A stretch of DNA of 64,000 bases from Escherichia coli (lineage in GTDB: Bacteria; Pseudomonadota; Gammaproteobacteria; Enterobacterales; Enterobacteriaceae), in the NCBI RefSeq assembly GCF_003790525.1, contig NZ_CP033635.1. One strand, written 5' to 3'. Every line of letters begins with the position of its first letter. Position 1 is the stretch's first letter. A program made the translations under genes and the position numbers. Shown here piece by piece: positions 8,313 through 39,514 of the stretch. The notes beneath the pieces are model-generated. The model did no database searches. It saw only the letters and a program-made list of their open reading frames with translations, and was not told the origin of the DNA.

Positions 8313-9095
8313 ATGTTGGAATCAAGCAAAGTTCCCGCCCTGACACGGGCTATTGATATTCTCAATTTGATTGCCCGCATTGGCCCCTGTAGTGCTGCGA
8401 CGATCATTGACACATTGGGGATCCCTAAAAGCACGGCCTATTTGCTGCTTAATGAACTCAGGCGTCAGCGTTTTCTTAGCCTTGATCACCAGGAAAATTT
8501 TTGTTTGTGGACCAGGCTGGTGGAGCTTTCCGGTCATGCGTTAAGCAAGATGGATCTCCGGGAACTGGCTCGACCGCGTTTGACGCAACTGATGGATACC
8601 ACCGGGCTGTTATGTCACCTGGGGATTATTGATAACGGCAGCGCTTATTACATTTTGAAAGTGGAGTCATCAGCCACTATCAGCGTGCGTTCCCATGAAG
8701 GAAAAAGCCTTTCGCTTTATCGCTCCGGAATAGGTAAATGCCTGCTTGCCTGGCAACCTGCAGCTGTACAGCAAAGTATTATCGAAGGGCTGATCTGGGA
8801 GCAGGCGACACCCACAACGATTACTCATCCACAGCAACTTCACGAAGAACTGGCGCGTATTCGCCGTCAGGGCTGGAGCTATGACAACGGCGAAGATTAC
8901 GCCGATGTCCGTTGTGTCGCTGCGCCGGTTTTTAACGCCAATAACGAGCTTACCGCTGCGATCTCGGTGGTCGGTACCCGCTTACAAATCAATGAAGAAT
9001 ACCGTGATTATCTGGCGGGCAAGGCCATTGCCTGCGCCAGGGATATTTCACGTCTGTTGGGATGGAAAAGTCCCTTTGACTTACAGGCCTCATAA
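8313..9095 (+). CDS. rhmR: RhmR, IclR-family transcriptional regulator of the L-rhamnonate operon
   Basis: 260-aa ORF with IclR-type HTH plus effector domain, immediately upstream of rhmD-rhmT-rhmA. Confidence 0.85.
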
Positions 9096-9109
9096 CAATG
9101 GAGAACAGC

Positions 9110-10315
9110 ATGACCCTACCAAAAATCAAACAGGTTCGCGCCTGGTTTACTGGCGGTGCGACAGCAGAAAAAGGCGCTGGCGGTGGTGATTATCACGACC
9201 AGGGGGCGAATCACTGGATTGACGATCATATTGCCACCCCGATGAGTAAATACCGCGATTACGAGCAGTCACGCCAGTCATTTGGCATTAACGTTCTTGG
9301 CACGTTGATTGTTGAAGTCGAAGCAGAAAACGGCCAGACCGGATTCGCCGTTTCGACAGCCGGTGAAATGGGCTGTTTTATTGTCGAAAAACACCTTAAC
9401 CGTTTCATTGAGGGTAAATGTGTCAGTGATATCAAACTGATCCACGATCAAATGCTCAATGCCACCCTGTATTACTCCGGCTCTGGTGGCCTGGTGATGA
9501 ATACGATTTCCTGTGTCGATCTGGCTCTGTGGGATCTGTTCGGCAAAGTGGTCGGGCTTCCGGTTTATAAACTTTTAGGCGGCGCAGTTCGTGATGAGAT
9601 TCAGTTCTACGCCACAGGTGCGCGTCCGGATCTGGCAAAAGAGATGGGCTTTATCGGTGGCAAAATGCCGACGCACTGGGGGCCACATGATGGCGATGCG
9701 GGGATCCGCAAAGATGCCGCTATGGTCGCGGATATGCGTGAAAAATGCGGTGAGGATTTCTGGTTAATGCTCGACTGCTGGATGAGTCAGGACGTGAACT
9801 ATGCCACCAAACTGGCCCACGCTTGCGCGCCCTATAACCTGAAATGGATCGAAGAGTGCCTGCCGCCACAGCAGTATGAAGGTTATCGCGAACTGAAACG
9901 CAACGCACCAGCGGGGATGATGGTCACCAGCGGTGAGCACCACGGCACATTGCAATCTTTCCGTACGCTTTCAGAAACCGGTATCGACATTATGCAGCCG
10001 GATGTTGGCTGGTGCGGTGGCTTAACCACGCTGGTGGAAATTGCCGCAATCGCCAAATCCAGGGGGCAACTGGTGGTGCCGCACGGTTCGTCTGTTTACT
10101 CCCACCATGCGGTGATCACCTTCACCAATACGCCATTCAGTGAATTCCTGATGACCAGCCCGGATTGTTCAACGATGCGTCCGCAATTTGATCCGATTCT
10201 GCTTAATGAGCCGGTTCCGGTGAATGGTCGTATTCATAAATCAGTGCTTGATAAACCCGGTTTCGGCGTTGAACTCAATCGTGACTGCAATTTGAAACGC
10301 CCCTACAGCCACTAA
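9110..10315 (+). CDS. rhmD: RhmD, L-rhamnonate dehydratase (enolase superfamily)
   Basis: ORF 9098-10315. Start preferred at ATG 9110 ([13 protein letters not shown]…), which has a GGAGA Shine-Dalgarno 5 nt upstream and gives about 401 aa. Confidence 0.85.
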
Positions 10316-10371
10316 TCACTCCGGGCGTTGCTGTGACAACGGTAACGCCCACATATTCTAAGGAGCTTTTT

Positions 10372-11661
10372 ATGAGCACCGCTTTGCTTGACGCCGTGGT
10401 GAAGAAAAACCGCGCGCGTTTAATTCCGTTTATGTTGGCGCTGTATGTGCTGGCGTTTCTCGACCGTTCGAATATTGGTTTTGCCAAACAGACCTACCAG
10501 ATTGATACCGGGCTGAGTAATGAAGCTTATGCGCTGGGAGCAGGCATTTTCTTTGTGGTATACGCGTTTCTGGGGGTTCCGGCGAATCTTTTGATGCGCA
10601 AACTGGGGGCAAGAACCTGGATTGGTACGACAACACTGCTGTGGGGATTTCTTTCGGCTGCCATGGCATGGGCCGATACTGAAGCGAAATTTCTGATTGT
10701 TCGCACTCTGCTTGGTGCTGCGGAGGCTGGGTTTTTCCCTGGTATGATTTATCTCACCTCGCAATGGTTTCCGCAGCGTAATCGCGCCAGCATTATGGGG
10801 CTGTTCTATATGGGCGCACCGCTGGCGTTAACACTGGGATCACCGCTTTCTGGCGCGCTGCTGGAGATGCATGGATTTATGGGGCATCCCGGCTGGTTCT
10901 GGATGTTTGTTATTGAAGGATTGTTGGCAGTCGGCGCTGGGGTATTCACATTCTTTTGGCTTGATGACACACCGGAGCAGGCACGTTTTCTGAGTAAAGA
11001 AGAAAAAACGTTGCTTATCAACCAACTGGCAAGTGAAGAACAACAGAAAGTGACTTCCCGACTGAGCGATGCGCTGCGTAATGGGCGAGTCTGGCAACTG
11101 GCGATTATCTACCTGACCATTCAGGTAGCGGTTTACGGATTAATTTTCTTCCTGCCGACCCAGGTTGCTGCATTGCTGGGGACAAAAGTGGGCTTTACGG
11201 CGTCGGTGGTCACCGCCATTCCGTGGGTTGCGGCCTTGTTTGGAACCTGGCTTATTCCGCGCTATTCCGATAAAACCGGCGAACGGCGTAATGTCGCAGC
11301 GCTGACATTACTGGCGGCGGGCATTGGTATTGGTCTGTCCGGGCTGCTTTCTCCAGTACTGGCGATCGTAGCGCTGTGTGTTGCAGCCATCGGGTTTATT
11401 GCCGTGCAGCCGGTGTTCTGGACGATGCCGACACAACTGCTTTCCGGTACGGCGCTGGCTGCGGGGATTGGTTTTGTAAACCTGTTTGGTGCAGTGGGCG
11501 GGTTTATTGCCCCGATCCTGCGCGTGAAAGCAGAAACGTTATTTTCCAGCGATGCGGCGGGATTACTGACGCTGGCAGCGGTGGCGGTCATCGGTTCGCT
11601 GATTATTTTCACTCTGCGTGTAAATCGCACTGTTGCGCAGACCGACGTGGCACATCATTAA
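10372..11661 (+). CDS. rhmT: RhmT, MFS (ACS-family) L-rhamnonate transporter
   Basis: ORF 10333-11661. Start placed at ATG 10372 ([10 protein letters not shown]…) preceded by AAGGAG; 12-TM MFS protein. Confidence 0.85.
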
Positions 11662-11678
11662 ATAGGTTAAGGAACACG

Positions 11679-12482
11679 ATGAACGCATTATTAAGCAATC
11701 CCTTTAAAGAACGTTTACGCAAGGGCGAAGTGCAAATTGGTCTGTGGTTAAGCTCGACTACTTCTTATATGGCAGAAATTGCCGCCACCTCCGGTTATGA
11801 CTGGTTGCTGATTGACGGGGAGCACGCGCCAAACACCATTCAGGATCTTTATCACCAGCTACAGGCGGTAGCGCCCTATGCCAGCCAACCCGTGATCCGT
11901 CCGGTGGAAGCCAGTAAGTCGCTGATTAAACAAGTCCTGGATATTGGCGCGCAAACTCTACTGATCCCGATGGTCGATACTGCCGATCAGGCACGTCAGG
12001 TGGTGTCTGCCACGCGCTATCCTCCCTACGGTGAGCGTGGTGTTGGGGCCAGTGTGGCACGGGCTGCTCGCTGGGGACGCATTGAGAATTACATGGCGCA
12101 CGTCAACGATTCGCTTTGTCTGTTGGTGCAGGTGGAAAGTAAGACGGCACTGGATAACCTGGACGAAATCCTCGGCGTCGAAGGAATTGATGGCGTGTTT
12201 ATTGGACCTGCGGATCTTTCTGCCTCGTTGGGCTACCCGGATAACGCCGGGCACCCGGAAGTGCAGCGAATTATTGAAACCAGCATTCGGCGGATCCGTG
12301 CTGCGGGTAAAGCTGCTGGTTTTCTGGCTGTGGCTCCTGATATGGCGCAGCAATGCCTGGCGTGGGGAGCGAACTTTGTCGCTGTTGGCGTTGACACGAT
12401 GCTCTACAGCGATGCCCTGGATCAACGACTGGCGATGTTTAAATCAGGCAAAAATGGGCCACGCGTAAAAGGTAGTTATTGA
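11679..12482 (+). CDS. rhmA: RhmA, 2-keto-3-deoxy-L-rhamnonate aldolase (HpcH/HpaI family)
   Basis: Track ORF 11376-12482 is an over-extended frame. The real start is ATG 11679 ([24 protein letters not shown]…), giving 267 aa. Confidence 0.85.
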
Positions 12483-20656: not shown

Positions 20657-20682
20657 CAGGATGGCGTTCATGCGCCATCCTG
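20657..20682. terminator. Hairpin after glpQ, overlapping the 3-prime end of the convergent LysR gene
   Basis: caggatggcgc-ttcat-gcgccatcctg, 11-bp perfect stem. Confidence 0.55.
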
Positions 20683-21567
20683 TCTCATATCAAATTTTCC
20701 ACTCTCCACTAATTGTTCTGTGCACATTTGTAGTAAAAACAGTGGACTGCCTTCTACCGGCTTTTCTTTAGCCAGCAACGAAATCTGTCGATAGAAGGTT
20801 GGTTCGAGAGGAACGGAACACAATTCATCTGCAATGGTTTTCAGCGTTAACTCTGGTAATAAGGCGATGCCTAATCCCTGTCGAATAAAACTGATCGCTG
20901 TATCCGGGTGATTAAATTCATATTTTATCTGTGGGGTAATATTCTTTTCTTTAAATAGTGCCATAATGCTTAATTCATAGCGTCCTTTACTAATAATTAA
21001 TGGTTCACCCATTAACTCTTCCACTGTAATAGTGCTGTTTTTTGCCAGAGCATGGTTGGGCGGTAACACTACGGTGAATTTATCCTGATAAATGGGCACG
21101 GAGTACATTCCGCTCACCGGAAAATGAACAAAACCGGCATCAATGGATTCATTCTGAAGGGAATCAATAATCGCTGTGCTATTTTCCTCAAAAGGAATAA
21201 TTTTTATATTCGGATGATGAATTTCAAAGTAGCGAATCACAGCCGGTAAGATACAGGCACAGACGCTGGGGAAACAACCAAGTCTCAGCGTTCTTTGAGG
21301 GTTCTGCTTTTCCTGCTCGGCTATCTCTTTTACTGCGTTCACTTCCCGATTAATGGCGCGCAGATGATGCATAATGCGGTGACCTGCAGAGGTCAGTTGT
21401 ATAGCTTTACGGCGATCGCGTAACAGTATATTCACGCCAAGTTCTTGTTCGAGGGCAGCAATTGCCTGACTTACCGCCGACTGCGTCATGAACAATCGCT
21501 TGCTGGCTTCAGTAAAGCCACCGTAATCCAGCACGGCGAGTAAAGAATTTATTTGGGTAAGAGTCAT
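20668..21567 (-). CDS. yfaH: LysR-family transcriptional regulator (full-length counterpart of yfaH)
   Basis: 299-aa ORF with N-terminal LysR HTH (…FTEASKRLFMTQSAVSQAIAALEQELG…) and substrate-binding domain. Intact here; I recall yfaH as a truncated pseudogene in K-12. Confidence 0.8.
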   Translation of the reverse strand: MTLTQINSLLAVLDYGGFTEASKRLFMTQSAVSQAIAALEQELGVNILLRDRRKAIQLTSAGHRIMHHLRAINREVNAVKEIAEQEKQNPQRTLRLGCFPSVCACILPAVIRYFEIHHPNIKIIPFEENSTAIIDSLQNESIDAGFVHFPVSGMYSVPIYQDKFTVVLPPNHALAKNSTITVEELMGEPLIISKGRYELSIMALFKEKNITPQIKYEFNHPDTAISFIRQGLGIALLPELTLKTIADELCSVPLEPTFYRQISLLAKEKPVEGSPLFLLQMCTEQLVESGKFDMRQDGA

Positions 21568-21718: not shown

Positions 21719-22909
21719 ATGAAAGAGAAGTTATGGACGAAGGATTTTTGGGCAATAACCATCATCAGTTTTATTATTTTCTTCGTCTTTTATGTTTTAC
21801 TAACATTGTTGCCAATTTATATCTCAGACCGCTTGCATGCCTCTCCTGATAAAGCAGGTTTGTTGGTGACTTTATTTTTAATTGCCGCCATTGTTATTCG
21901 CCCCTTTGCCGGGCAATGGGTGGGTAAATATTCGAATAAAACTATTCTGGGGCTCTCTTCTCTGGCCTTCTTGGTGGTCACTGCGCTGTATCCTTTTTGC
22001 CACTCAATTGAATCACTGCTTTTTATTCGGGTGCTTCATGGTATTACCTTCGGGGTTATCACTACGGTAAAAGGAACGATTTCCGCGCGGCTGATCCCGG
22101 CCTCCCGACGTGGGGAGGGCATCAGTTTTTTCTCTCTGGCAATGGGGCTGGCAATGGTGGTCGGGCCGTGGATTGGCCTGAATATGGCGCGCTGGGAGGC
22201 CTTTAATATGGCTTTCTGGTTATGCACCGGCGTGGCAGCGGTGGGGATTATTCTGTCGCTGATTATGACAGTGCCGCCGGTTATCAGCCATGCTGATGGT
22301 TCAACGCCGAAAATGGGCTTCGCCGCCATGTTCGATCGCGCGGCGTTGCCATTTGCGATGGTCACCTTTTTTATGACCTTTTCGTATGCCGGGGTTTCTG
22401 CTTTTCTGGCGCTTTATGCACGCGAACTTAACCTGATGTCGGCAGCCAGTAATTTCCTGCTTTGCTACGCTATCTTCCTGATGATCTGCCGTACCTTTAC
22501 CGGCAATGTCTGCGACAAAAAAGGACCGAAATATGTGGTTTACCCTTGCCTTGTGTTCTTTACGGTTGGACTGGTGGTTCTCGGCTACACCCAGGGAAGC
22601 ATAATGATGGTTGTTTCTGGCGCGTTGATTGGTATCGGGTATGGTTCCGTGACGCCAGTTTTTCAGACGCAGATTATCAGTTCAGTGGAACCGCATAAAA
22701 TCGGTGTCGCAAACTCCCTCTTCTTCAATGCGATGGATGCAGGCCTGGCGCTGGGAGCCTGTGTGATGGGGATGATGGTTGCACATACTGGCTACCGAAT
22801 GATTTATCTGCTGGGTGCACTATTAGTGGTAGTGGCTGGTGGAGTCTATGAGCTGCAAATGAAGGGCAAAAGCGGTGTCATGCTAGTAGCGGCAAAAGAA
22901 ATTCATTAA
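21719..22909 (+). CDS. MFS transporter (12-TM, efflux-type), divergent from the LysR regulator
   Basis: 396-aa ORF, hydrophobic throughout with MFS loop motifs; not an ORF I associate with K-12 at this position. Confidence 0.75.
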   Translation: MKEKLWTKDFWAITIISFIIFFVFYVLLTLLPIYISDRLHASPDKAGLLVTLFLIAAIVIRPFAGQWVGKYSNKTILGLSSLAFLVVTALYPFCHSIESLLFIRVLHGITFGVITTVKGTISARLIPASRRGEGISFFSLAMGLAMVVGPWIGLNMARWEAFNMAFWLCTGVAAVGIILSLIMTVPPVISHADGSTPKMGFAAMFDRAALPFAMVTFFMTFSYAGVSAFLALYARELNLMSAASNFLLCYAIFLMICRTFTGNVCDKKGPKYVVYPCLVFFTVGLVVLGYTQGSIMMVVSGALIGIGYGSVTPVFQTQIISSVEPHKIGVANSLFFNAMDAGLALGACVMGMMVAHTGYRMIYLLGALLVVVAGGVYELQMKGKSGVMLVAAKEIH

Positions 22910-31974: not shown

Positions 31975-32095
31975 GTCTGACCGGCACTGTTGCCGGATGC
32001 GGCGTAAACGCCTTATCTGGCCTACGGGAGCATTTGTAGGCCTGATAAGACGCGGCAAGCGTCGCATCAGGCTTGGCTCGGTCGTCGGATGAATC
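31975..32095. repeat. REP (BIME) elements between yfaL and ubiG
   Basis: tgccggatgcggcgtaaacgccttatctggcctac and ggcctgataagacgcg…cgtcgcatcaggc REP motifs. Confidence 0.8.
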
Positions 32096-32107
32096 CAAAC
32101 AACAACC

Positions 32108-32830
32108 TCACTTATTCTGCGTATGCAGCATATAGTTCACATCAACGCCGGGGCCGAGCTTAAAGGAATTAGTTATAGGGTTGTAATGCAGCCCGGTCAT
32201 ATGCCGTTCTTTAAGACTGGTCTGATCCACCCAGCCCAGCAATTCTGCCGGTTTAATAAACTTCTTCACATCATGTGTACCTTTAGGCACCATGCGCAAA
32301 ATATATTCAGCACCAACCACCGCCATCAGCCATGACTTGCCGTTGCGGTTGAGCGTCGAGAAAAAGACATCGCCGCCCGGTTTCACCAGTTGCGCACAGG
32401 CTCTGACCACTGACTGAGGATCGGGGACGTGCTCCAGCATCTCCATGCAGGTCACCACATCATACTGCCCGGCATGTTTTGCCGCGTGCTCTTCCACGGT
32501 TTCCTGCACGTAATCCACCTGAATGCCGCTTTCCAGTGCGTGCAGTTTTGCCACCTGCAATGGCTCAAAGCCCATATCCAGACCGGTCACCGTCGCACCT
32601 TCGCGCGCCATACTCTCGGCCAGAATGCCGCCGCCACAACCGACATCGAGCACCTTTTTGCCAAATAAACCGCCAGCACGCTCGGCAATATAGCCCAGAC
32701 GCAGCGGGTTAATACGGTGCAGCGGTTTGAACTCACCTTCCAGATCCCACCAGCGGGAGGCGACGGCTTCAAATTTAGCGATCTCTTCGTGGTCTACGTT
32801 ATTGTTTTTAAGGAGATTTTCAGTGTTCAT
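32108..32830 (-). CDS. ubiG: UbiG, bifunctional ubiquinone-biosynthesis O-methyltransferase
   Basis: 240-aa ORF with SAM-binding motif ([13 protein letters not shown]). Confidence 0.95.
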
Positions 32831-32907
32831 TGTTACATAAGAGTCTATAAAGGTTGTCGGGCAGTATAGCAGGTGAAAAGTGCCAGTGTTATAAACTCAT
32901 TCACATT

Positions 32908-33606
32908 TTACTGTGTAGATAACGAGAGAATTTTTCGTGCGCGCTCGGTAAATCCACTACTTACGTGATGAGTAATAAAATTACAAACACCTTCAACGTT
33001 ATTATTTTTTAGCATATCTAAAATAGTCGCATGGCCACGATTTGAATTGGTGATATATTCCGTAGTGAAATCCAGTCGATAACGGATAGCAAGTAAACGT
33101 GCGGATATCAATTGGTGTGCCTGAGAGATGTATTTATTATCAGCGTATTTAACAAACACATAATGAAAATCATGATCCAGTTTAAGATAAGCCTGAGTAT
33201 CGCGCTCGGCATTAATTTTTGCTGATTTTGATAGTATACTATTTAGTTCAATGATGACATTGTTTGCATTCTTTTCCATTGCTTCACTAATTGCACCCTG
33301 CTCCAGAATTACTCGCATTTTTATGAGGTCATTAATATCTTTATCTGTTACGGAAAAAACGAATGTTCCGCTGCGTGGAATGATATTGATCAGATTTTCA
33401 TTGTGACTAAGTAAAATAAAAGCTTCACGAATAGGTGTTTTACTTACCGCCAGAATATTCGAAAGTTCATTTTCACTTATCGGTTGCCCAAGACTGAGAT
33501 CGCCATGAATTATCATATCCCTGATTTTTTCTTTGATGACCTGTGTTACGGATTTTGGTATCTCAATTGATATGTGACTTAAGTCACGTTTCGCTTTATC
33601 TCTCAT
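32908..33606 (-). CDS. GntR-family (FadR/FCD subfamily) transcriptional regulator; accessory-island gene
   Basis: 232-aa ORF with N-terminal GntR-type winged HTH (…LSENELSNILAVSKTPIREAF…) and C-terminal all-helical FCD-like domain; codons are AT-rich. Confidence 0.8.
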   Translation of the reverse strand: MRDKAKRDLSHISIEIPKSVTQVIKEKIRDMIIHGDLSLGQPISENELSNILAVSKTPIREAFILLSHNENLINIIPRSGTFVFSVTDKDINDLIKMRVILEQGAISEAMEKNANNVIIELNSILSKSAKINAERDTQAYLKLDHDFHYVFVKYADNKYISQAHQLISARLLAIRYRLDFTTEYITNSNRGHATILDMLKNNNVEGVCNFITHHVSSGFTERARKILSLSTQ

Positions 33607-33670
33607 TCCTTTGCCCCTTATTAAGCTGCTGGTCCATTATATGTAATCATTTTATCAATGAAGGTATCTA

Positions 33671-33753
33671 ATATATCAGATATGACAAAAATGATATATC
33701 TTATTGTTGTAGCTTAGTGTTTCAATCAATGATCAAGCTGATATATCAGATAT
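33671..33753. promoter_or_regulatory. Two copies of a 13-bp operator-like motif in the divergent regulator / transporter promoter region
   Basis: atatatcagatat occurs at 33671-33683 and again at 33741-33753; the core atatc-a-gatat is an inverted repeat. Confidence 0.45.
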
Positions 33754-33843
33754 AACACATCACCTTTTGAACTGGATTATTTTTTACGTAATATCCACTT
33801 CGGGCAGTACTCTTATTCATTGAACCACAAAAGGTGAAACAAA

Positions 33844-35172
33844 ATGAGCAGTCCTCAGAAAGATTTGTATGAAGCCATTTCTATTGTGAAAAGGAAGATT
33901 ATTCCGTTAGCATTTATTCTGTATTTTTTTAACTATATGGATCGTGTTAACATCGGATTTGCCGCTTTACGCATGAATGAATCCCTTGGTATTACACCAG
34001 AGGATTTTGCTAATATATCTTCAATATTTTTTGTGTCCTATTTGATTTTTCAAATTCCGAGCAGTATTGGATTGCAAAAGTTAGGTGCAAGAAAATGGAT
34101 TAGCGCCATTATTGTTGGTTGGGGAACAGTAACAACGTTAATTTTCTTTGCCAAAGACACCCAGCATATATTGCTCGCTCGGGTCTTTTTGGGAATATTT
34201 GAAGCGGGGTTTTTCCCTGGCATGGTTTACTACCTGGCATGTTGGTTCCCGGCGCGTGAACGTGGAAAAGTGAATAGCTTTTTTATGTTATCAATCGCAG
34301 TTGCATCTGTGCTGGCGGCACCAATGTCTGGTTGGATTATTGAACATATGAATACCGGTAACTATGAAGGATGGCGCTGGCTTTTTGCTATTGAAGGCAT
34401 TCCTACGGTGTTATTGGGGGCGCTGACCTTTTATTTACTGCCAGATCGTCCGGAAAAAGCCCGCTGGCTTACACCATCGCAAGTCACCGCATTGGTCGAT
34501 AAACTTAATTCTGATAACGAAAAAGCCGCAGCATTAAATAAAAATACAAATGCATCTTTTCTGTCAATCATTAAAAATCCAGTATTACTACAACTCTCAT
34601 TTGCTTATATGTTTATTCAGGCAGCGGCGTTGGCGGCAAATTACTGGTTACCGGGGTTGGTTAAAGGATTTTCATCGGATTTCACAGATACCGATGTCGG
34701 TTTGATTATGAGTATTCCGTTTATTTTCGCGATGTTCAGTATGCCATTATGGGGATGGCATTCCGATAAAAAGAATGAAAGGAAATGGCATGCCGCACTA
34801 CCGATGTTGGTTGCAGGTTGCGGTTTTTTAATGATCGCACTTGTACCTTCGATGACGCTGCGCATGATGGGATTAACATTATACGGTGTAGGCATTCTCA
34901 GTTATTACGGTCCGTACTGGGCTTTACCCTCAGCTTTACTTTCACCATCAGGCCTGGCAATCAGTATTGCGTTTATTAACTCTTGTTCAAGTTTGGGTGG
35001 TTTTCTGATCAATAAATCACTTGGCTATGTTTCTACACATTATGGAGCCACGGGGATATTTATTGTTGAGGCGATTCTTTGCTTTATCGCCGTAGCTATT
35101 TTGTTATCAATGAAAATTGATAATAAAAAAGATAACGCCCAGAAAGACAATGTTATTTCACATGCTAAATAA
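33844..35172 (+). CDS. MFS transporter of the anion:cation symporter (ACS) family, sugar-acid type (DgoT/RhmT/GudP-like)
   Basis: 442-aa ORF with motifs shared with the RhmT in this window (…DRVNIGFAA…, [11 protein letters not shown]…, WFPxRER). Confidence 0.8.
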   Translation: MSSPQKDLYEAISIVKRKIIPLAFILYFFNYMDRVNIGFAALRMNESLGITPEDFANISSIFFVSYLIFQIPSSIGLQKLGARKWISAIIVGWGTVTTLIFFAKDTQHILLARVFLGIFEAGFFPGMVYYLACWFPARERGKVNSFFMLSIAVASVLAAPMSGWIIEHMNTGNYEGWRWLFAIEGIPTVLLGALTFYLLPDRPEKARWLTPSQVTALVDKLNSDNEKAAALNKNTNASFLSIIKNPVLLQLSFAYMFIQAAALAANYWLPGLVKGFSSDFTDTDVGLIMSIPFIFAMFSMPLWGWHSDKKNERKWHAALPMLVAGCGFLMIALVPSMTLRMMGLTLYGVGILSYYGPYWALPSALLSPSGLAISIAFINSCSSLGGFLINKSLGYVSTHYGATGIFIVEAILCFIAVAILLSMKIDNKKDNAQKDNVISHAK

Positions 35173-35184
35173 ATGAGGTTATTT

Positions 35185-36387
35185 ATGAAGATTACATCTG
35201 TAGAAATTTTTGACTGCGAACTCAAAAAAAGAGATCAAACTATGGCCTCTTATAATCCAGTACTTATTCGGGTTAATACCGATGCTGGAATAAGTGGTGT
35301 TGGCGAAGTAGGATTAGCCTATGGTGCAGGTGCAAAATCTGGTGTTGGTATTATCAGAGATTTAGCCCCTCTCATCATTGGTGAAGATCCGTTGAACATT
35401 GAGAAGATTTGGGAATTCCTCTTCAGGAAAACATTTTGGGGAATGGGCGGTGGTAATGTTTTTTACGCAGGTATGAGCGCTATTGATATTGCCTTATGGG
35501 ATATTAAAGGTAAATATTTAAACGTGCCGGTTTATCAACTACTGGGGGGAAAGACTAACGATAAATTGAGAACTTACGCCAGTCAGTTACAATTTGGTTG
35601 GGGCGAAAAAAGGCAAATATTAGTAACGCCTGAAGAGTATGCAGAGGCAGCGCGTGCCGCTATTGCAGAAGGTTATAATGCGATAAAAGTTGATCCGCTT
35701 GAAATCGATCTGCATGGCGGCGATTGTGTCTTTCAGAACAAAAATAGAAATTACTCTGGCTTATTACTGGCCGAACAATTAAAAATGGGCGAGGCAAGAA
35801 TTGCCGCTATGCGTGAAGCAATGGGCGACGATGCTGATATTATTGTAGAGATTCATTCTCTTCTAGGAACAAATTCAGCGATCCAGTTTGCCAAAGCAAT
35901 AGAGAAATATCGTATTTTTCTCTATGAGGAGCCAATTCATCCATTAAATTCGGATAATATGCAGAAAGTTGCCCGTTCAACATCGATTCCGATAGCAACA
36001 GGTGAGCGTTCTTATACTCGCTGGGGATATCGTGATTTACTGGAAAAACAATCAATTGCGGTAGCTCAACCTGATTTGTGTCTTTGTGGTGGCATTACAG
36101 AGGGAAAGAAAATTTGTGATTATGCCAATATATATGACACAACCGTTCAGGTACATGTTTGTGGCGGGCCTGTTTCAACAGTAGCGGCGCTGCATATGGA
36201 AACTGCAATACCTAACTTTATTATTCATGAACATCATACCAATGCGATGAAAGCATGTATTCGGGAACTTTGTACTTACGATTATCAACCCGAGAATGGC
36301 TATTATGTCGCGCCAGAGTTGCCTGGGCTTGGTCAGGAATTAAACGATGAAATCGTACAACAATATCTTGCCTATGTGATCAAATAA
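35185..36387 (+). CDS. Enolase-superfamily sugar-acid dehydratase, GalD / mandelate-racemase subgroup (D-galactonate-dehydratase-like)
   Basis: ORF 35173-36387. Start preferred at ATG 35185 (MKITSVEIFD…) with a GAGG Shine-Dalgarno at 35175-35178. Has the KxK motif (WDIKGK), the metal-ligand region and the QPDLxxxGGITE motif typical of DgoD-like dehydratases. Confidence 0.8.
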   Translation: MKITSVEIFDCELKKRDQTMASYNPVLIRVNTDAGISGVGEVGLAYGAGAKSGVGIIRDLAPLIIGEDPLNIEKIWEFLFRKTFWGMGGGNVFYAGMSAIDIALWDIKGKYLNVPVYQLLGGKTNDKLRTYASQLQFGWGEKRQILVTPEEYAEAARAAIAEGYNAIKVDPLEIDLHGGDCVFQNKNRNYSGLLLAEQLKMGEARIAAMREAMGDDADIIVEIHSLLGTNSAIQFAKAIEKYRIFLYEEPIHPLNSDNMQKVARSTSIPIATGERSYTRWGYRDLLEKQSIAVAQPDLCLCGGITEGKKICDYANIYDTTVQVHVCGGPVSTVAALHMETAIPNFIIHEHHTNAMKACIRELCTYDYQPENGYYVAPELPGLGQELNDEIVQQYLAYVIK

Positions 36388-36403
36388 CGGCGATTTATAT
36401 ACT

Positions 36404-36660
36404 CTAAATAATTCGAGTTGCAGGAAGGCGACAAGCGAGTGACAAATTCGTCAGGAACGAATTTGCCCAGCCGCAGGCTGGCCTTCGGTGAGAGACATGG
36501 ATGTCTCTCATTAATCCCCAGGAGCTTACATAAGTAAGTGACTGGGGTGAGCGACAAATCCGCATGGAGCGGATTTGAACGCTGCTTGCAGCGGCCCCGT
36601 AAGGGGTGAGGTCCATGGATGGGCCGAATAACCCGCAGACGCAGCACATGCAACTTGAAG
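36404..36660. repeat. ERIC (IRU) repeat, long variant, upstream of gyrA
   Basis: Contains the ERIC core ccccaggagcttacataagtaagtgactggggtgagcg (exact ERIC2 primer sequence at 36532-36553) flanked by imperfect inverted-repeat arms. Confidence 0.75.
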
Positions 36661-36886
36661 TATGACGAGTATAGCCATTATTTCTGGTGTTTATTGAGGC
36701 ACAGGAAGCGTGTTGCGGTCTTTGTTCCTTTGTCGTTCACCGCCAGCGCGATGTGTGCTGGCGGTGGGGTAAAACGCAGTAGATCTACAGCGCCCGGAAG
36801 CCTGCATTACGTTTACCCGTCCGCAAGCGATTGTGTTATAATCTCCGACCTTTGAATCCGGGATACAGTAGAGGGATAGCGGTTAG

Positions 36887-39514
36887 ATGAGCGACCTTGC
36901 GAGAGAAATTACACCGGTCAACATTGAGGAAGAGCTGAAGAGCTCCTATCTGGATTATGCGATGTCGGTCATTGTTGGCCGTGCGCTGCCGGATGTCCGA
37001 GATGGCCTGAAGCCGGTACACCGTCGCGTACTTTACGCCATGAACGTACTAGGCAATGACTGGAACAAAGCCTATAAAAAATCTGCCCGTGTCGTTGGTG
37101 ACGTAATCGGTAAATACCATCCCCATGGTGACTTGGCGGTTTATAACACGATCGTCCGTATGGCGCAGCCATTCTCGCTGCGTTACATGCTGGTAGACGG
37201 TCAGGGTAACTTCGGTTCCATCGACGGCGACTCTGCGGCGGCAATGCGTTATACGGAAATCCGTCTGGCGAAAATTGCCCATGAACTGATGGCCGATCTC
37301 GAAAAAGAGACGGTCGATTTCGTTGATAACTATGACGGCACGGAAAAAATTCCGGACGTCATGCCAACCAAAATTCCTAACCTGCTGGTGAACGGTTCTT
37401 CCGGTATCGCCGTAGGTATGGCAACCAACATCCCGCCGCACAACCTGACGGAAGTCATCAACGGTTGTCTGGCGTATATCGATGATGAAGACATCAGCAT
37501 TGAAGGGCTGATGGAACACATCCCGGGGCCGGACTTCCCGACGGCGGCAATCATTAACGGTCGTCGCGGTATTGAAGAAGCTTACCGTACCGGTCGTGGC
37601 AAGGTGTATATCCGCGCCCGTGCGGAAGTGGAAGTTGACGCCAAAACCGGGCGTGAAACCATTATCGTCCACGAAATTCCGTATCAGGTGAACAAAGCTC
37701 GCCTGATCGAAAAAATTGCGGAACTGGTAAAAGAAAAACGCGTGGAAGGTATCAGCGCGCTGCGTGACGAGTCTGACAAAGACGGTATGCGCATCGTGAT
37801 TGAAGTGAAACGCGATGCGGTCGGTGAAGTGGTGCTCAACAACCTCTATTCCCAGACCCAGTTGCAGGTTTCTTTCGGTATTAACATGGTGGCATTGCAC
37901 CATGGTCAGCCGAAGATCATGAACCTGAAAGACATCATCGCGGCGTTTGTTCGTCACCGCCGTGAAGTGGTGACCCGTCGTACTATTTTCGAACTGCGTA
38001 AAGCGCGCGATCGTGCTCATATCCTTGAAGCATTAGCCGTCGCGCTGGCAAACATTGACCCGATCATCGAACTGATCCGTCATGCGCCGACGCCTGCAGA
38101 AGCGAAAACGGCGCTGGTTGCTAATCCGTGGCAGCTGGGCAACGTTGCCGCGATGCTGGAACGAGCCGGCGACGATGCTGCGCGTCCGGAATGGCTGGAG
38201 CCAGAGTTCGGCGTGCGTGACGGTCTGTACTACCTGACCGAACAGCAAGCTCAGGCGATTCTGGATCTGCGTTTGCAGAAACTGACCGGCCTTGAGCACG
38301 AAAAACTGCTCGACGAATACAAAGAGCTGCTGGATCAGATCGCGGAACTGTTGCGTATTCTTGGTAGCGCCGATCGTCTGATGGAAGTGATCCGCGAAGA
38401 GCTGGAGCTGGTTCGTGAACAGTTCGGTGACAAACGTCGTACTGAAATCACCGCCAACAGCGCAGACATCAACCTGGAAGATCTGATCACCCAGGAAGAT
38501 GTGGTCGTGACGCTCTCTCACCAGGGCTACGTTAAATATCAGCCGCTTTCTGAATACGAAGCGCAGCGTCGTGGCGGGAAAGGTAAATCTGCCGCACGTA
38601 TTAAAGAAGAAGACTTTATCGACCGACTGCTGGTGGCGAATACCCACGACCATATTCTGTGCTTCTCCAGCCGTGGTCGCGTCTATTCGATGAAGGTTTA
38701 CCAGTTGCCAGAAGCTACTCGTGGCGCGCGCGGTCGTCCGATCGTCAACCTGCTGCCGCTGGAGCAGGACGAACGTATCACCGCGATCCTGCCGGTGACC
38801 GAGTTTGAAGAAGGCGTGAAAGTCTTCATGGCCACCGCTAACGGGACCGTGAAGAAAACCGTCCTCACCGAATTCAACCGTCTGCGTACCGCCGGTAAAG
38901 TGGCGATCAAACTGGTTGATGGCGATGAGCTGATCGGCGTTGACCTGACCAGCGGCGAAGATGAAGTAATGCTGTTCTCCGCCGAAGGTAAAGTGGTGCG
39001 CTTTAAAGAGTCTTCTGTCCGTGCGATGGGCTGCAACACCACCGGTGTTCGCGGTATTCGTTTAGGCGAAGGCGATAAAGTCGTCTCTCTGATCGTACCT
39101 CGTGGTGATGGCGCAATCCTCACCGCAACGCAGAACGGTTATGGTAAACGTACCGCAGTGGCGGAATACCCAACCAAGTCGCGTGCGACGAAAGGGGTTA
39201 TCTCCATCAAGGTTACCGAACGTAACGGTTTAGTGGTTGGCGCGGTGCAGGTAGATGACTGCGACCAGATCATGATGATCACCGATGCCGGTACGCTGGT
39301 ACGTACTCGCGTTTCAGAAATCAGCATCGTGGGCCGTAACACCCAGGGCGTGATCCTCATCCGTACTGCGGAAGATGAAAACGTAGTGGGTCTGCAACGT
39401 GTTGCTGAACCGGTTGACGAGGAAGATCTGGATACCATCGACGGCAGTGCCGCGGAAGGGGACGATGAAATCGCTCCGGAAGTGGACGTTGACGACGAGC
39501 CAGAAGAAGAATAA
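36887..39514 (+). CDS. gyrA: GyrA, DNA gyrase subunit A; QRDR carries Leu83 and Asn87
   Basis: 875-aa ORF, full-length GyrA. Codon 83 (37133-37135) is TTG (Leu) and codon 87 (37145-37147) is AAC (Asn), within [11 protein letters not shown]. Confidence 0.97.

Follow-up and report, generated by a model that had tools for sequence, protein, structure and literature searches.

The DNA analysed here is a 64-kb stretch of Escherichia coli sequence (contig NZ_CP033635.1), hereafter the window, and our subject is the interval between ubiG (minus strand, 32108-32830) and gyrA (plus strand, 36887-39514). As delimited in the table of open reading frames (ORFs), this interval measures 4056 bp (32831-36886) and holds three ORFs, which encode a GntR/FCD regulator, a transporter of the major facilitator superfamily (MFS) and an enolase-superfamily dehydratase:

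32908-33606, minus strand: GntR/FCD regulator, 232 aa
33844-35172, plus strand: MFS transporter, 442 aa
35185-36387, plus strand: dehydratase, 400 aa (alternative ATG at 35173)

The ORF table and Pfam bear out the gene identities and coordinates that a first-pass annotation of this DNA had given to the trio. The same annotation had found kinase, aldolase, integrase and insertion sequence (IS) genes to be absent from the interval, and the ORF table agrees, with no integrase or IS ORFs and no tRNA within 32831-36886; no Rfam RNA family matches there at its gathering score. The trio had also been called AT-rich, which the computed GC content confirms at 36-41% against 53-54% in the flanks (regulator 0.356, MFS gene 0.401, dehydratase gene 0.408; ubiG 0.528, gyrA 0.540). 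The whole window has a GC content of 0.503 and the regulator-MFS intergenic region one of 0.312. In sliding windows, GC falls from 0.53-0.55 to 0.33-0.44 over 32750-36250 and returns to 0.53, and GC at third codon positions is 0.29-0.37 in the three genes compared with 0.59-0.60 in the flanks. The cassette of repressor, acid transporter and dehydratase is a genuine, intact and well-delimited accessory operon, and its kind is well known. Public genomes already carry annotation of the locus, and the dehydratase has an orthologue with two crystal structures. Of the marks of a classical genomic island it has the deviant base composition and lacks the integrase, tRNA, direct-repeat or IS boundaries. 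A 13-nt direct repeat around the cassette, GTGTTATAA(A/T)CTC (12 of 13 positions match), was considered as a target-site duplication and rejected, as K-12 is without the corresponding single-copy empty site and the sequences adjoining the repeats do not match.

The dehydratase has the two-domain make-up of the enolase superfamily, an N-terminal capping domain and a C-terminal modified TIM barrel, with Pfam matches to MR_MLE_N (2.4e-22) and MR_MLE_C (1.5e-58). PDB entries 4E6M and 2GL5, both named 'putative dehydratase protein', align with it end to end and without gaps (92% identity, E ~1e-259). The next-best structures, 2O56, 2OX4 and 2POZ, are also 'putative' enzymes, and the structures named as galactonate or mannonate dehydratases match only at E 1e-45 to 1e-49. 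None of the NCBIfam equivalog cut-offs is reached, the scores being 249.3 bits for DgoD/GalD (NF010624; cut-off 311), 239.1 for gluconate/galactonate dehydratase (cut-off 750), 203.5 for ManD (cut-off 550), 182.2 for arabinonate dehydratase (cut-off 650) and 125.7 for RhmD (cut-off 393), and no match to a tartrate dehydratase model was reported. At E <= 1e-60 the family comprises 4654 database clusters from Proteobacteria, Firmicutes, Chloroflexi and fungi. Residues E222, H224, E248, E274, D297 and H324 align with D183, H185, E209, E235, D258 and H285 of DgoD and are identical in the Salmonella and Budvicia enzymes, and the three carboxylates at the metal-ligand positions E222, E248 and E274, which correspond to the ends of barrel strands 3, 4 and 5, align as well with D226, E252 and E280 of RhmD. 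The His-Asp dyad (H324/D297) as base and the acid His (H224), two residues after the first ligand, follow the GalD pattern; the catalytic and metal-ligand roles are those of the DgoD and RhmD residues in the literature. Because the aligned residues match DgoD and recur in Salmonella and Budvicia, the GalD-type catalytic apparatus is intact, and the alignment with DgoD thus upholds the expectation that the enzyme keeps its catalytic residues. A loop of ~25 residues after the second barrel strand sets its subgroup apart from DgoD. By sequence, we would place the enzyme as a GalD-like acid-sugar dehydratase of an orphan subgroup, the PDB 2GL5/4E6M type.

The transporter matches Pfam MFS_1 and appears to be of the anion:cation symporter (ACS) type (TC 2.A.1.14), resembling RhmT, DgoT and HpaX. 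It scores 269.7 bits against TIGR00893, the D-galactonate-transporter subfamily (cut-off 395), and 270.7 bits against HpaX, both below the curated cut-offs. The MFS protein adjoining RhmD in the rhmRDTA cluster of the window, which we take to be RhmT, is likewise under the TIGR00893 cut-off at 251.8 bits. Identity is 31% to RhmT over the full length, 23% to DgoT and 89% to the Salmonella orthologue. Since only 12 nt separate the MFS stop from the dehydratase start, and GAGG lies 7 nt before the dehydratase ATG, the two genes probably form one operon.

In the regulator, the GntR (positions 3-64 of 64) and FCD (1-124 of 125) domains of Pfam are both complete, giving the N-terminal winged helix and C-terminal FCD domain of the FadR/FCD subfamily of the GntR family. 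The protein is 88% identical to its Salmonella orthologue, which has Met at the equivalent start position, and a purine-rich, Shine-Dalgarno-like stretch (GGGG/AGGA) lies upstream of the ATG at 33606. On the grounds of complete domains, a Met aligned with that of Salmonella and an upstream ribosome-binding stretch, we regard the regulator as functional. Between it and the transporter lies a divergent control region with the following features:

33607-33843, no strand: divergent control region, 237 bp, 31% GC
33725..33698, minus strand: promoter-like site from a promoter scan
33671-33683, no strand: candidate operator 1, ATATATCAGATAT, 13 bp, palindromic core TATC-A-GATA
33741-33753, no strand: candidate operator 2, ATATATCAGATAT, 13 bp

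The 13-mer has two exact copies in the window, both in the divergent spacer, where 0.03 would be expected by chance. In Salmonella, both copies and their 70-bp spacing are kept amid diverged sequence; a TTGAAC-16 nt-TAATAT block upstream of the MFS gene is kept there as well. Similar TATC-A-GATA motifs stand beside homologous cassettes in Gilliamella (two copies), Enterobacter and Caballeronia. The two palindromes are likely to represent the signature expected of an operator for a GntR/FCD repressor.

Of 5426 complete E. coli genomes searched by megablast with the three genes, 141 (~2.6%) have the trio, in one chromosomal copy each and at 98.8-100% identity; in the others, matches are confined to the ubiG and gyrA edges and a dispersed repeat. 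The question of presence or absence raised by the first-pass annotation is answered by these counts, the trio being missing from 97.4% of complete genomes. Among the carriers are SMS-3-5, which is 100% identical to the window, and CE10, both strains of phylogroup F. Isolates of poultry, dog, cattle, wildlife, wastewater and patient origin are also among the carriers. In four carriers, divergence from the window is 0-2.3% over the island genes and 1.5-2.4% over gyrA, while the K-12 gyrA is 2.2% from that of the window; the carriers are more than one clone. Carriage on plasmids was considered and rejected: a tblastn search of plasmids found the orthologue only on ~500-kb Salmonella records typed as non-mobilizable, possibly pieces of a chromosome, besides distant homologues elsewhere.

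The same trio stands at the same place in Salmonella. This context came to light when the native sequence of 4E6M was looked up by exact match, that sequence being present on very many Salmonella assemblies; a scan of a genome collection had returned Budvicia, Limnobaculum and distant taxa, and neither Salmonella nor other Escherichia species. At all four Salmonella loci shown, the order is nrdB-nrdA-ubiG, the GntR/FCD gene (minus), the MFS gene (plus), the dehydratase gene (plus) and gyrA-rcsC-rcsB-rcsD. In Salmonella Typhimurium, as in the window, the three genes share their order and orientation between ubiG and gyrA, their AT-richness and the palindrome pair 70 bp apart, whereas no yfaL lies beside ubiG. 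GC content is 0.36-0.43 in the Salmonella trio compared with 0.55-0.56 in its ubiG and gyrA. We take this trio to be STM2273-STM2275, to which PDB entries 2GL5 and 4E6M would belong. In the papers searched, the only mentions are listings of STM2273 as 'Dehydratase' (PMC5183578) and of STM2275 as a transcriptional regulator (PMC3293720). A codon-level comparison of the window with Salmonella gave these values for nucleotide (nt) and amino acid (aa) identity and for nonsynonymous (dN) and synonymous (dS) divergence:

Regulator: nt 80%, aa 88%; dN 0.065, dS 2.4
MFS transporter: nt 79%, aa 89%; dN 0.073, dS 2.1
Dehydratase: nt 82%, aa 92%; dN 0.046, dS 1.4
ubiG: nt 79%, aa 91%; dN 0.060, dS 2.8
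gyrA: nt 86%, aa 91%; dN 0.049, dS 0.6

The ratio dN/dS is ~0.03 in all three island genes, an approximate figure given that dS is saturated; all three have been under strong purifying selection.

The flanks of the cassette differ between carriers and K-12 in the following segments:

32831-32907, minus strand: ubiG-proximal spacer, 77 bp, with a promoter-like site at 32892..32863 (-35 ATAACA, 18-nt spacer, TG, -10 TATACT)
32798-32830, minus strand: variant ubiG 5' end, codons 1-11, in all carriers examined; ubiG-side limit of the island haplotype
36674-36886, plus strand: gyrA upstream region, of which the last ~70 bp (-35 GTTTACC, -10 TATAAT, leader) are common to K-12 and Salmonella

Aligned with its Salmonella counterpart, the ubiG-proximal spacer of the window scores 48, against 10.6 +/- 4.3 (maximum 26) for shuffled sequences, whereas the K-12 ubiG spacer is at chance level, with 13 against 13.1 in comparison with the window and 8 against 10.5 in comparison with Salmonella. 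The -10 hexamer TATACT is the sole element of the ubiG spacer common to the window, K-12 and Salmonella. The UbiG N-terminus of carriers is divergent and AT-enriched (K-12 has MNAEKSPVNHN and Salmonella MNTEKPSVAHN), and from codon 12 the window and K-12 are 99-100% identical over ~350 bp. Because carriers have this variant ubiG 5' end in common, the boundary of the haplotype can be placed ~33 bp inside ubiG. At the nucleotide level, codons 1-11 of the carrier gene resemble a compensated -1/+1 frameshift together with G-to-T changes. Beyond those ~350 bp, ubiG diverges again toward its 3' end and yfaL (84-93%).

These comparisons bear on the polarity of the difference from K-12. A ubiG-gyrA spacer of about 150 bp had been given for K-12; it measures 146 bp and is identical in a K-12-type genome, CFT073 and an O169:H41 strain. 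With Salmonella as the outgroup, the island-type flank is the state in common, which argues that the K-12 spacer is derived, and the presence of the same trio at the same site in Salmonella, a divergence equal to that of ubiG and a spacer homologous to Salmonella's all argue that the island state is old. The trio thus appears to be ancient at the ubiG-gyrA site and to have been lost by most E. coli, although it may instead have been brought in by an equally ancient import through homologous recombination. The first-pass annotation had read the locus as an insertion between ubiG and gyrA. That reading errs in polarity or age, as the same trio occupies the Salmonella site.

The downstream spacer tells of a separate event. 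ERIC elements are imperfect palindromes of ~126 bp that are dispersed in enterobacterial genomes, sometimes with internal insertions. The repeat between the dehydratase gene and gyrA belongs to this ERIC/IRU family and has a segment resembling the ERIC core consensus GTGAATCCCCAGGAGCTTACATAAGTAAGTGACTGGGGTGAGCG. An alignment of this spacer in seven carriers resolves its states:

~36395-36673, no strand: ERIC-type repeat with two internal insertions of ~70-80 bp
Spacer of 224-225 bp: empty site (13E0780, A34, MS1718)
Spacer of 347-350 bp: plain ERIC (CE10, A22)
Spacer of 428 bp: ERIC with one internal insertion of ~78 bp (2014C-3075)
Spacer of 499 bp: ERIC with two internal insertions (window, SMS-3-5)

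The ERIC is a later arrival inside the downstream spacer of the cassette, and the proposal that it marks the island boundary fails, since the site is empty in some carriers. In Salmonella, a partial ERIC is found at another distance from the dehydratase stop codon. Such elements are dispersed in E. coli, with a median of 6 matching places per genome, and the copy at ~36395-36673 is strongly structured as RNA (fold z = -10). The four nested states, at one site and on near-identical haplotypes, form a natural series for the arrival of an ERIC and its inserts. Nearer to gyrA, the island-specific part of the upstream region contains a perfect 10-bp stem, CACCGCCAGC ... GCTGGCGGTG, at 36740-36768, which all carriers have and K-12 lacks; no T-run follows it.

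Related cassettes occur at other sites. On another enterobacterial contig, the same arrangement is flanked by yhjD-like and yhjC-like genes; its dehydratase has 87% and its regulator 72% identity to those of the window, and its GC content is 39-42% within flanks of 54-56%. Versions that are 62-78% identical, with varying gene order, are found in Budvicia, Limnobaculum, Morganella, Caballeronia, Gilliamella and Enterobacter. Those of Budvicia and Limnobaculum adjoin lnt, that of Morganella adjoins a phage-type integrase gene and that of Enterobacter sits among IS fragments, and a 55% identical Salmonella paralogue (serovar India) is accompanied by two MFS genes, a porin gene, a GntR gene and an integrase gene. 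Because the same arrangement recurs at other sites, in some cases beside an integrase gene or IS fragments, the cassette has been mobile. The recurring cassettes are AT-poorer or AT-richer, in step with a foreign origin. No kinase, aldolase or second dehydratase gene is adjacent in the eight related contexts examined. Among more distant relatives, Firmicute homologues (54-58% identity) adjoin LarA-type 2-hydroxy-acid racemases and tricarboxylate-type or TRAP transporters; the neighbourhoods in Clostridia, Synergistaceae and Pleomorphomonas contain only unrelated or generic enzymes and a LarA-type racemase, and give no clue to the substrate. The LarA-type racemase in two Firmicute contexts hints that C2 configuration matters, the homologues concerned being distant.

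Among named systems, the E. coli dgoRKADT operon, for D-galactonate utilisation, similarly combines a GntR/FCD repressor (DgoR), an ACS-family MFS transporter (DgoT) and an enolase-superfamily dehydratase (DgoD) with the same catalytic constellation. Unlike the cassette, it has a kinase (DgoK) and an aldolase (DgoA), and the cassette dehydratase is only 31% identical to DgoD and carries the extra loop of ~25 residues. The window itself contains rhmRDTA (8313-12482), for L-rhamnonate utilisation, in which RhmD (823 bits) and RhmA (589 bits) are confirmed. This cluster too pairs an enolase-superfamily dehydratase with an MFS transporter of apparent ACS type, and the family-match pattern of the two transporters is the same. 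However, RhmR is of the IclR type, the cluster has its own aldolase (RhmA), RhmD has W228 in place of the acid His, and identity is only 26% between the dehydratases and 31% between the transporters. The cassette had been described as a paralogous counterpart of rhmRDTA, a description that survives at the superfamily level and not as close paralogy, given these identities, the IclR-type regulator and the lack of an RhmA equivalent; the two are better viewed as analogous members of the same superfamilies. The ManD subgroup has the same fold as our dehydratase, and in both a loop is inserted behind barrel strand 2 and a D/E-x-H motif is present, but the PDB entries for ManD match at E ~1e-45 or weaker and the ManD model gives 203 bits against its cut-off of 550.

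We consider it probable that the locus is an intact, self-regulated uptake-and-dehydration cassette for a sugar acid or 2-hydroxy-acid, orthologous to the Salmonella ubiG-gyrA trio and ancient at that site, and that the K-12 spacer is derived. In the mechanism that we propose, the GntR/FCD protein would bind the two conserved 13-bp palindromes and repress both its own gene and the transporter-dehydratase operon, and binding of the acid or its product to the FCD domain would relieve this repression. The ACS-type symporter would, judging from its family, import the acid in an H+-coupled manner. In the Mg2+-dependent dehydratase, the H324-D297 dyad would take the C2 proton and H224 would eliminate the C3 hydroxyl to yield a 2-keto-3-deoxy acid, a chemistry modelled on that of GalD and compatible with the aligned residues. 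The repeated absence of linked downstream genes suggests that metabolism of the product is unlinked; it could be used by core enzymes (KdgK/Eda, DgoK/DgoA or a pyruvate aldolase), or could itself be a central 2-keto acid. As to the history of the locus, the trio, foreign in composition, would have arrived before or roughly at the Escherichia-Salmonella split, and the 146-bp K-12-type spacer would have been produced by deletion or replacement.

Several points weigh against this interpretation. The first metal ligand of the dehydratase is Glu where GalD has Asp. In the literature we found no functional study of the locus or the enzyme and no assigned substrate, and although an orthologue has been crystallised twice, it is still named 'putative dehydratase' in the PDB. 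With dS saturated (1.4-2.8), a trio of the same age as the species split is only an approximate statement. Close homologues of the regulator, in a search of 5.8 billion clusters, come only from E. coli, Salmonella and one further lineage, so that vertical descent needs loss not only in most E. coli but also in other genera, no other named genus having a close regulator homologue. Disruptions of the cassette by IS5 and IS1 in two genomes show that it is dispensable and are signs of ongoing loss. Finally, RefSeq/PGAP labels the regulator (32908-33650) a 'frameshifted' pseudogene, as it does every E. coli copy inspected. The frameshift sits in a 15-codon N-terminal extension of the RefSeq reference model, and the label is probably an annotation artefact arising from a reference model with a longer N-terminus.

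The disruptions and the label are also what a decaying remnant would leave, that is, a locus silenced or made non-functional by a frameshifted regulator and by silencing of AT-rich DNA, and on its way to being lost. Absence from 97% of genomes would agree with decay, as would the IS5 copy inside the dehydratase gene of TH9F11 (NZ_CP054191.1) and the IS1-associated truncation of the island in NZ_OZ546943.1. We think such decay very improbable, however: the 232-aa regulator ORF encodes complete GntR and FCD domains behind a start Met that has an aligned counterpart in Salmonella, neither the transporter nor the dehydratase is shortened in comparison with Salmonella, the dehydratase aligning without a gap, and dN/dS is ~0.03, with all catalytic residues kept and the operator pair conserved. 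That the cassette was recently inserted by horizontal transfer in a single E. coli lineage, an ancestor of phylogroup-F-like strains, with the K-12 spacer as the ancestral empty site, is easier to entertain than decay and still distinctly unlikely. The contrast in GC (36-41% against 53-54% in the flanks), carriage by only 2.6% of complete E. coli genomes, and the movement of the unit attested by the other enterobacterial site and by relatives beside integrase genes or IS fragments would all fit a recent arrival. It is contradicted by the Salmonella trio, which agrees in site, order and orientation and whose divergence equals that of ubiG, by carriers that are up to 2.3% apart in the island and whose gyrA alleles are as far from one another as from K-12, and by a ubiG-upstream spacer that matches Salmonella's in carriers and not in K-12; nor does the locus show a target-site duplication, integrase, tRNA or IS.

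The remaining alternative keeps the architecture and changes the substrate, to a short hydroxy-(di)acid of the tartrate or glycerate type that would be converted directly to oxaloacetate or pyruvate. Such direct formation of a central 2-keto acid would explain why a downstream enzyme is never linked, in keeping with the trio-only architecture in eight independent contexts, and the Firmicute homologues (54-58%) beside LarA-type racemases and tricarboxylate-type or TRAP transporters lend further weight. On the other hand, the best family matches of the dehydratase are hexonate and pentonate dehydratases (GalD 249, gluconate/galactonate 239 and ManD 203 bits), no match to a tartrate dehydratase model was reported, and the Firmicute homologues are too distant for specificity to be transferred. 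We regard a short hydroxy-acid as unlikely and favour a C5 or C6 aldonate as the putative substrate of the cassette. The absent downstream genes favour either a product taken by core enzymes, such as 2-keto-3-deoxygluconate via KdgK/Eda, or a central 2-keto acid.

Other parts of the window also differ from K-12. Between glpQ and inaA, a divergent pair of a LysR regulator gene (20668-21567, minus strand) and an MFS gene (21719-22909, plus strand) is intact in the window and in SMS-3-5. In a K-12-type genome, this interval holds two short annotated fragments, and the window is ~1.9 kb longer there, a second presence/absence difference. The segment 25104-32807, from nrdA through ypaB and yfaL to the 3' stretch of ubiG, is 89% identical to K-12 compared with 96-97.5% for the rest of the window, and includes the adhesin autotransporter gene yfaL. 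In the yfaL-ubiG spacer, 32039-32100 (minus strand) gives a sub-threshold match to Rfam naRNA4 (39 bits against a gathering score of 59.5, E = 1.6e-4), which may be a REP-type repeat.

There is nothing unusual about the locus as a genome feature; it is an accessory operon, old and AT-rich, that K-12 lacks at this site. Its presence or absence cleanly separates Salmonella and a minority of E. coli from the remaining E. coli, and that minority takes in lineages that are multidrug-resistant or come from birds or companion animals, SMS-3-5-like strains among them. A bolder and more tentative idea, which we hold to be possible while leaning against it, is that the 2GL5-type dehydratase performs an uncatalogued enolase-superfamily dehydration of an acid from the gut or from plants, with a product that needs no dedicated enzymes to enter central metabolism. 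The minimal cassette, which is widespread in Salmonella enterica and kept by few E. coli lineages, would in that case act as a portable determinant of the nutrient niche. Thousands of genes would gain an annotation if the substrate were named, the enzyme's subgroup having more than 4600 homologues at E <= 1e-60, and a niche trait might be explained.

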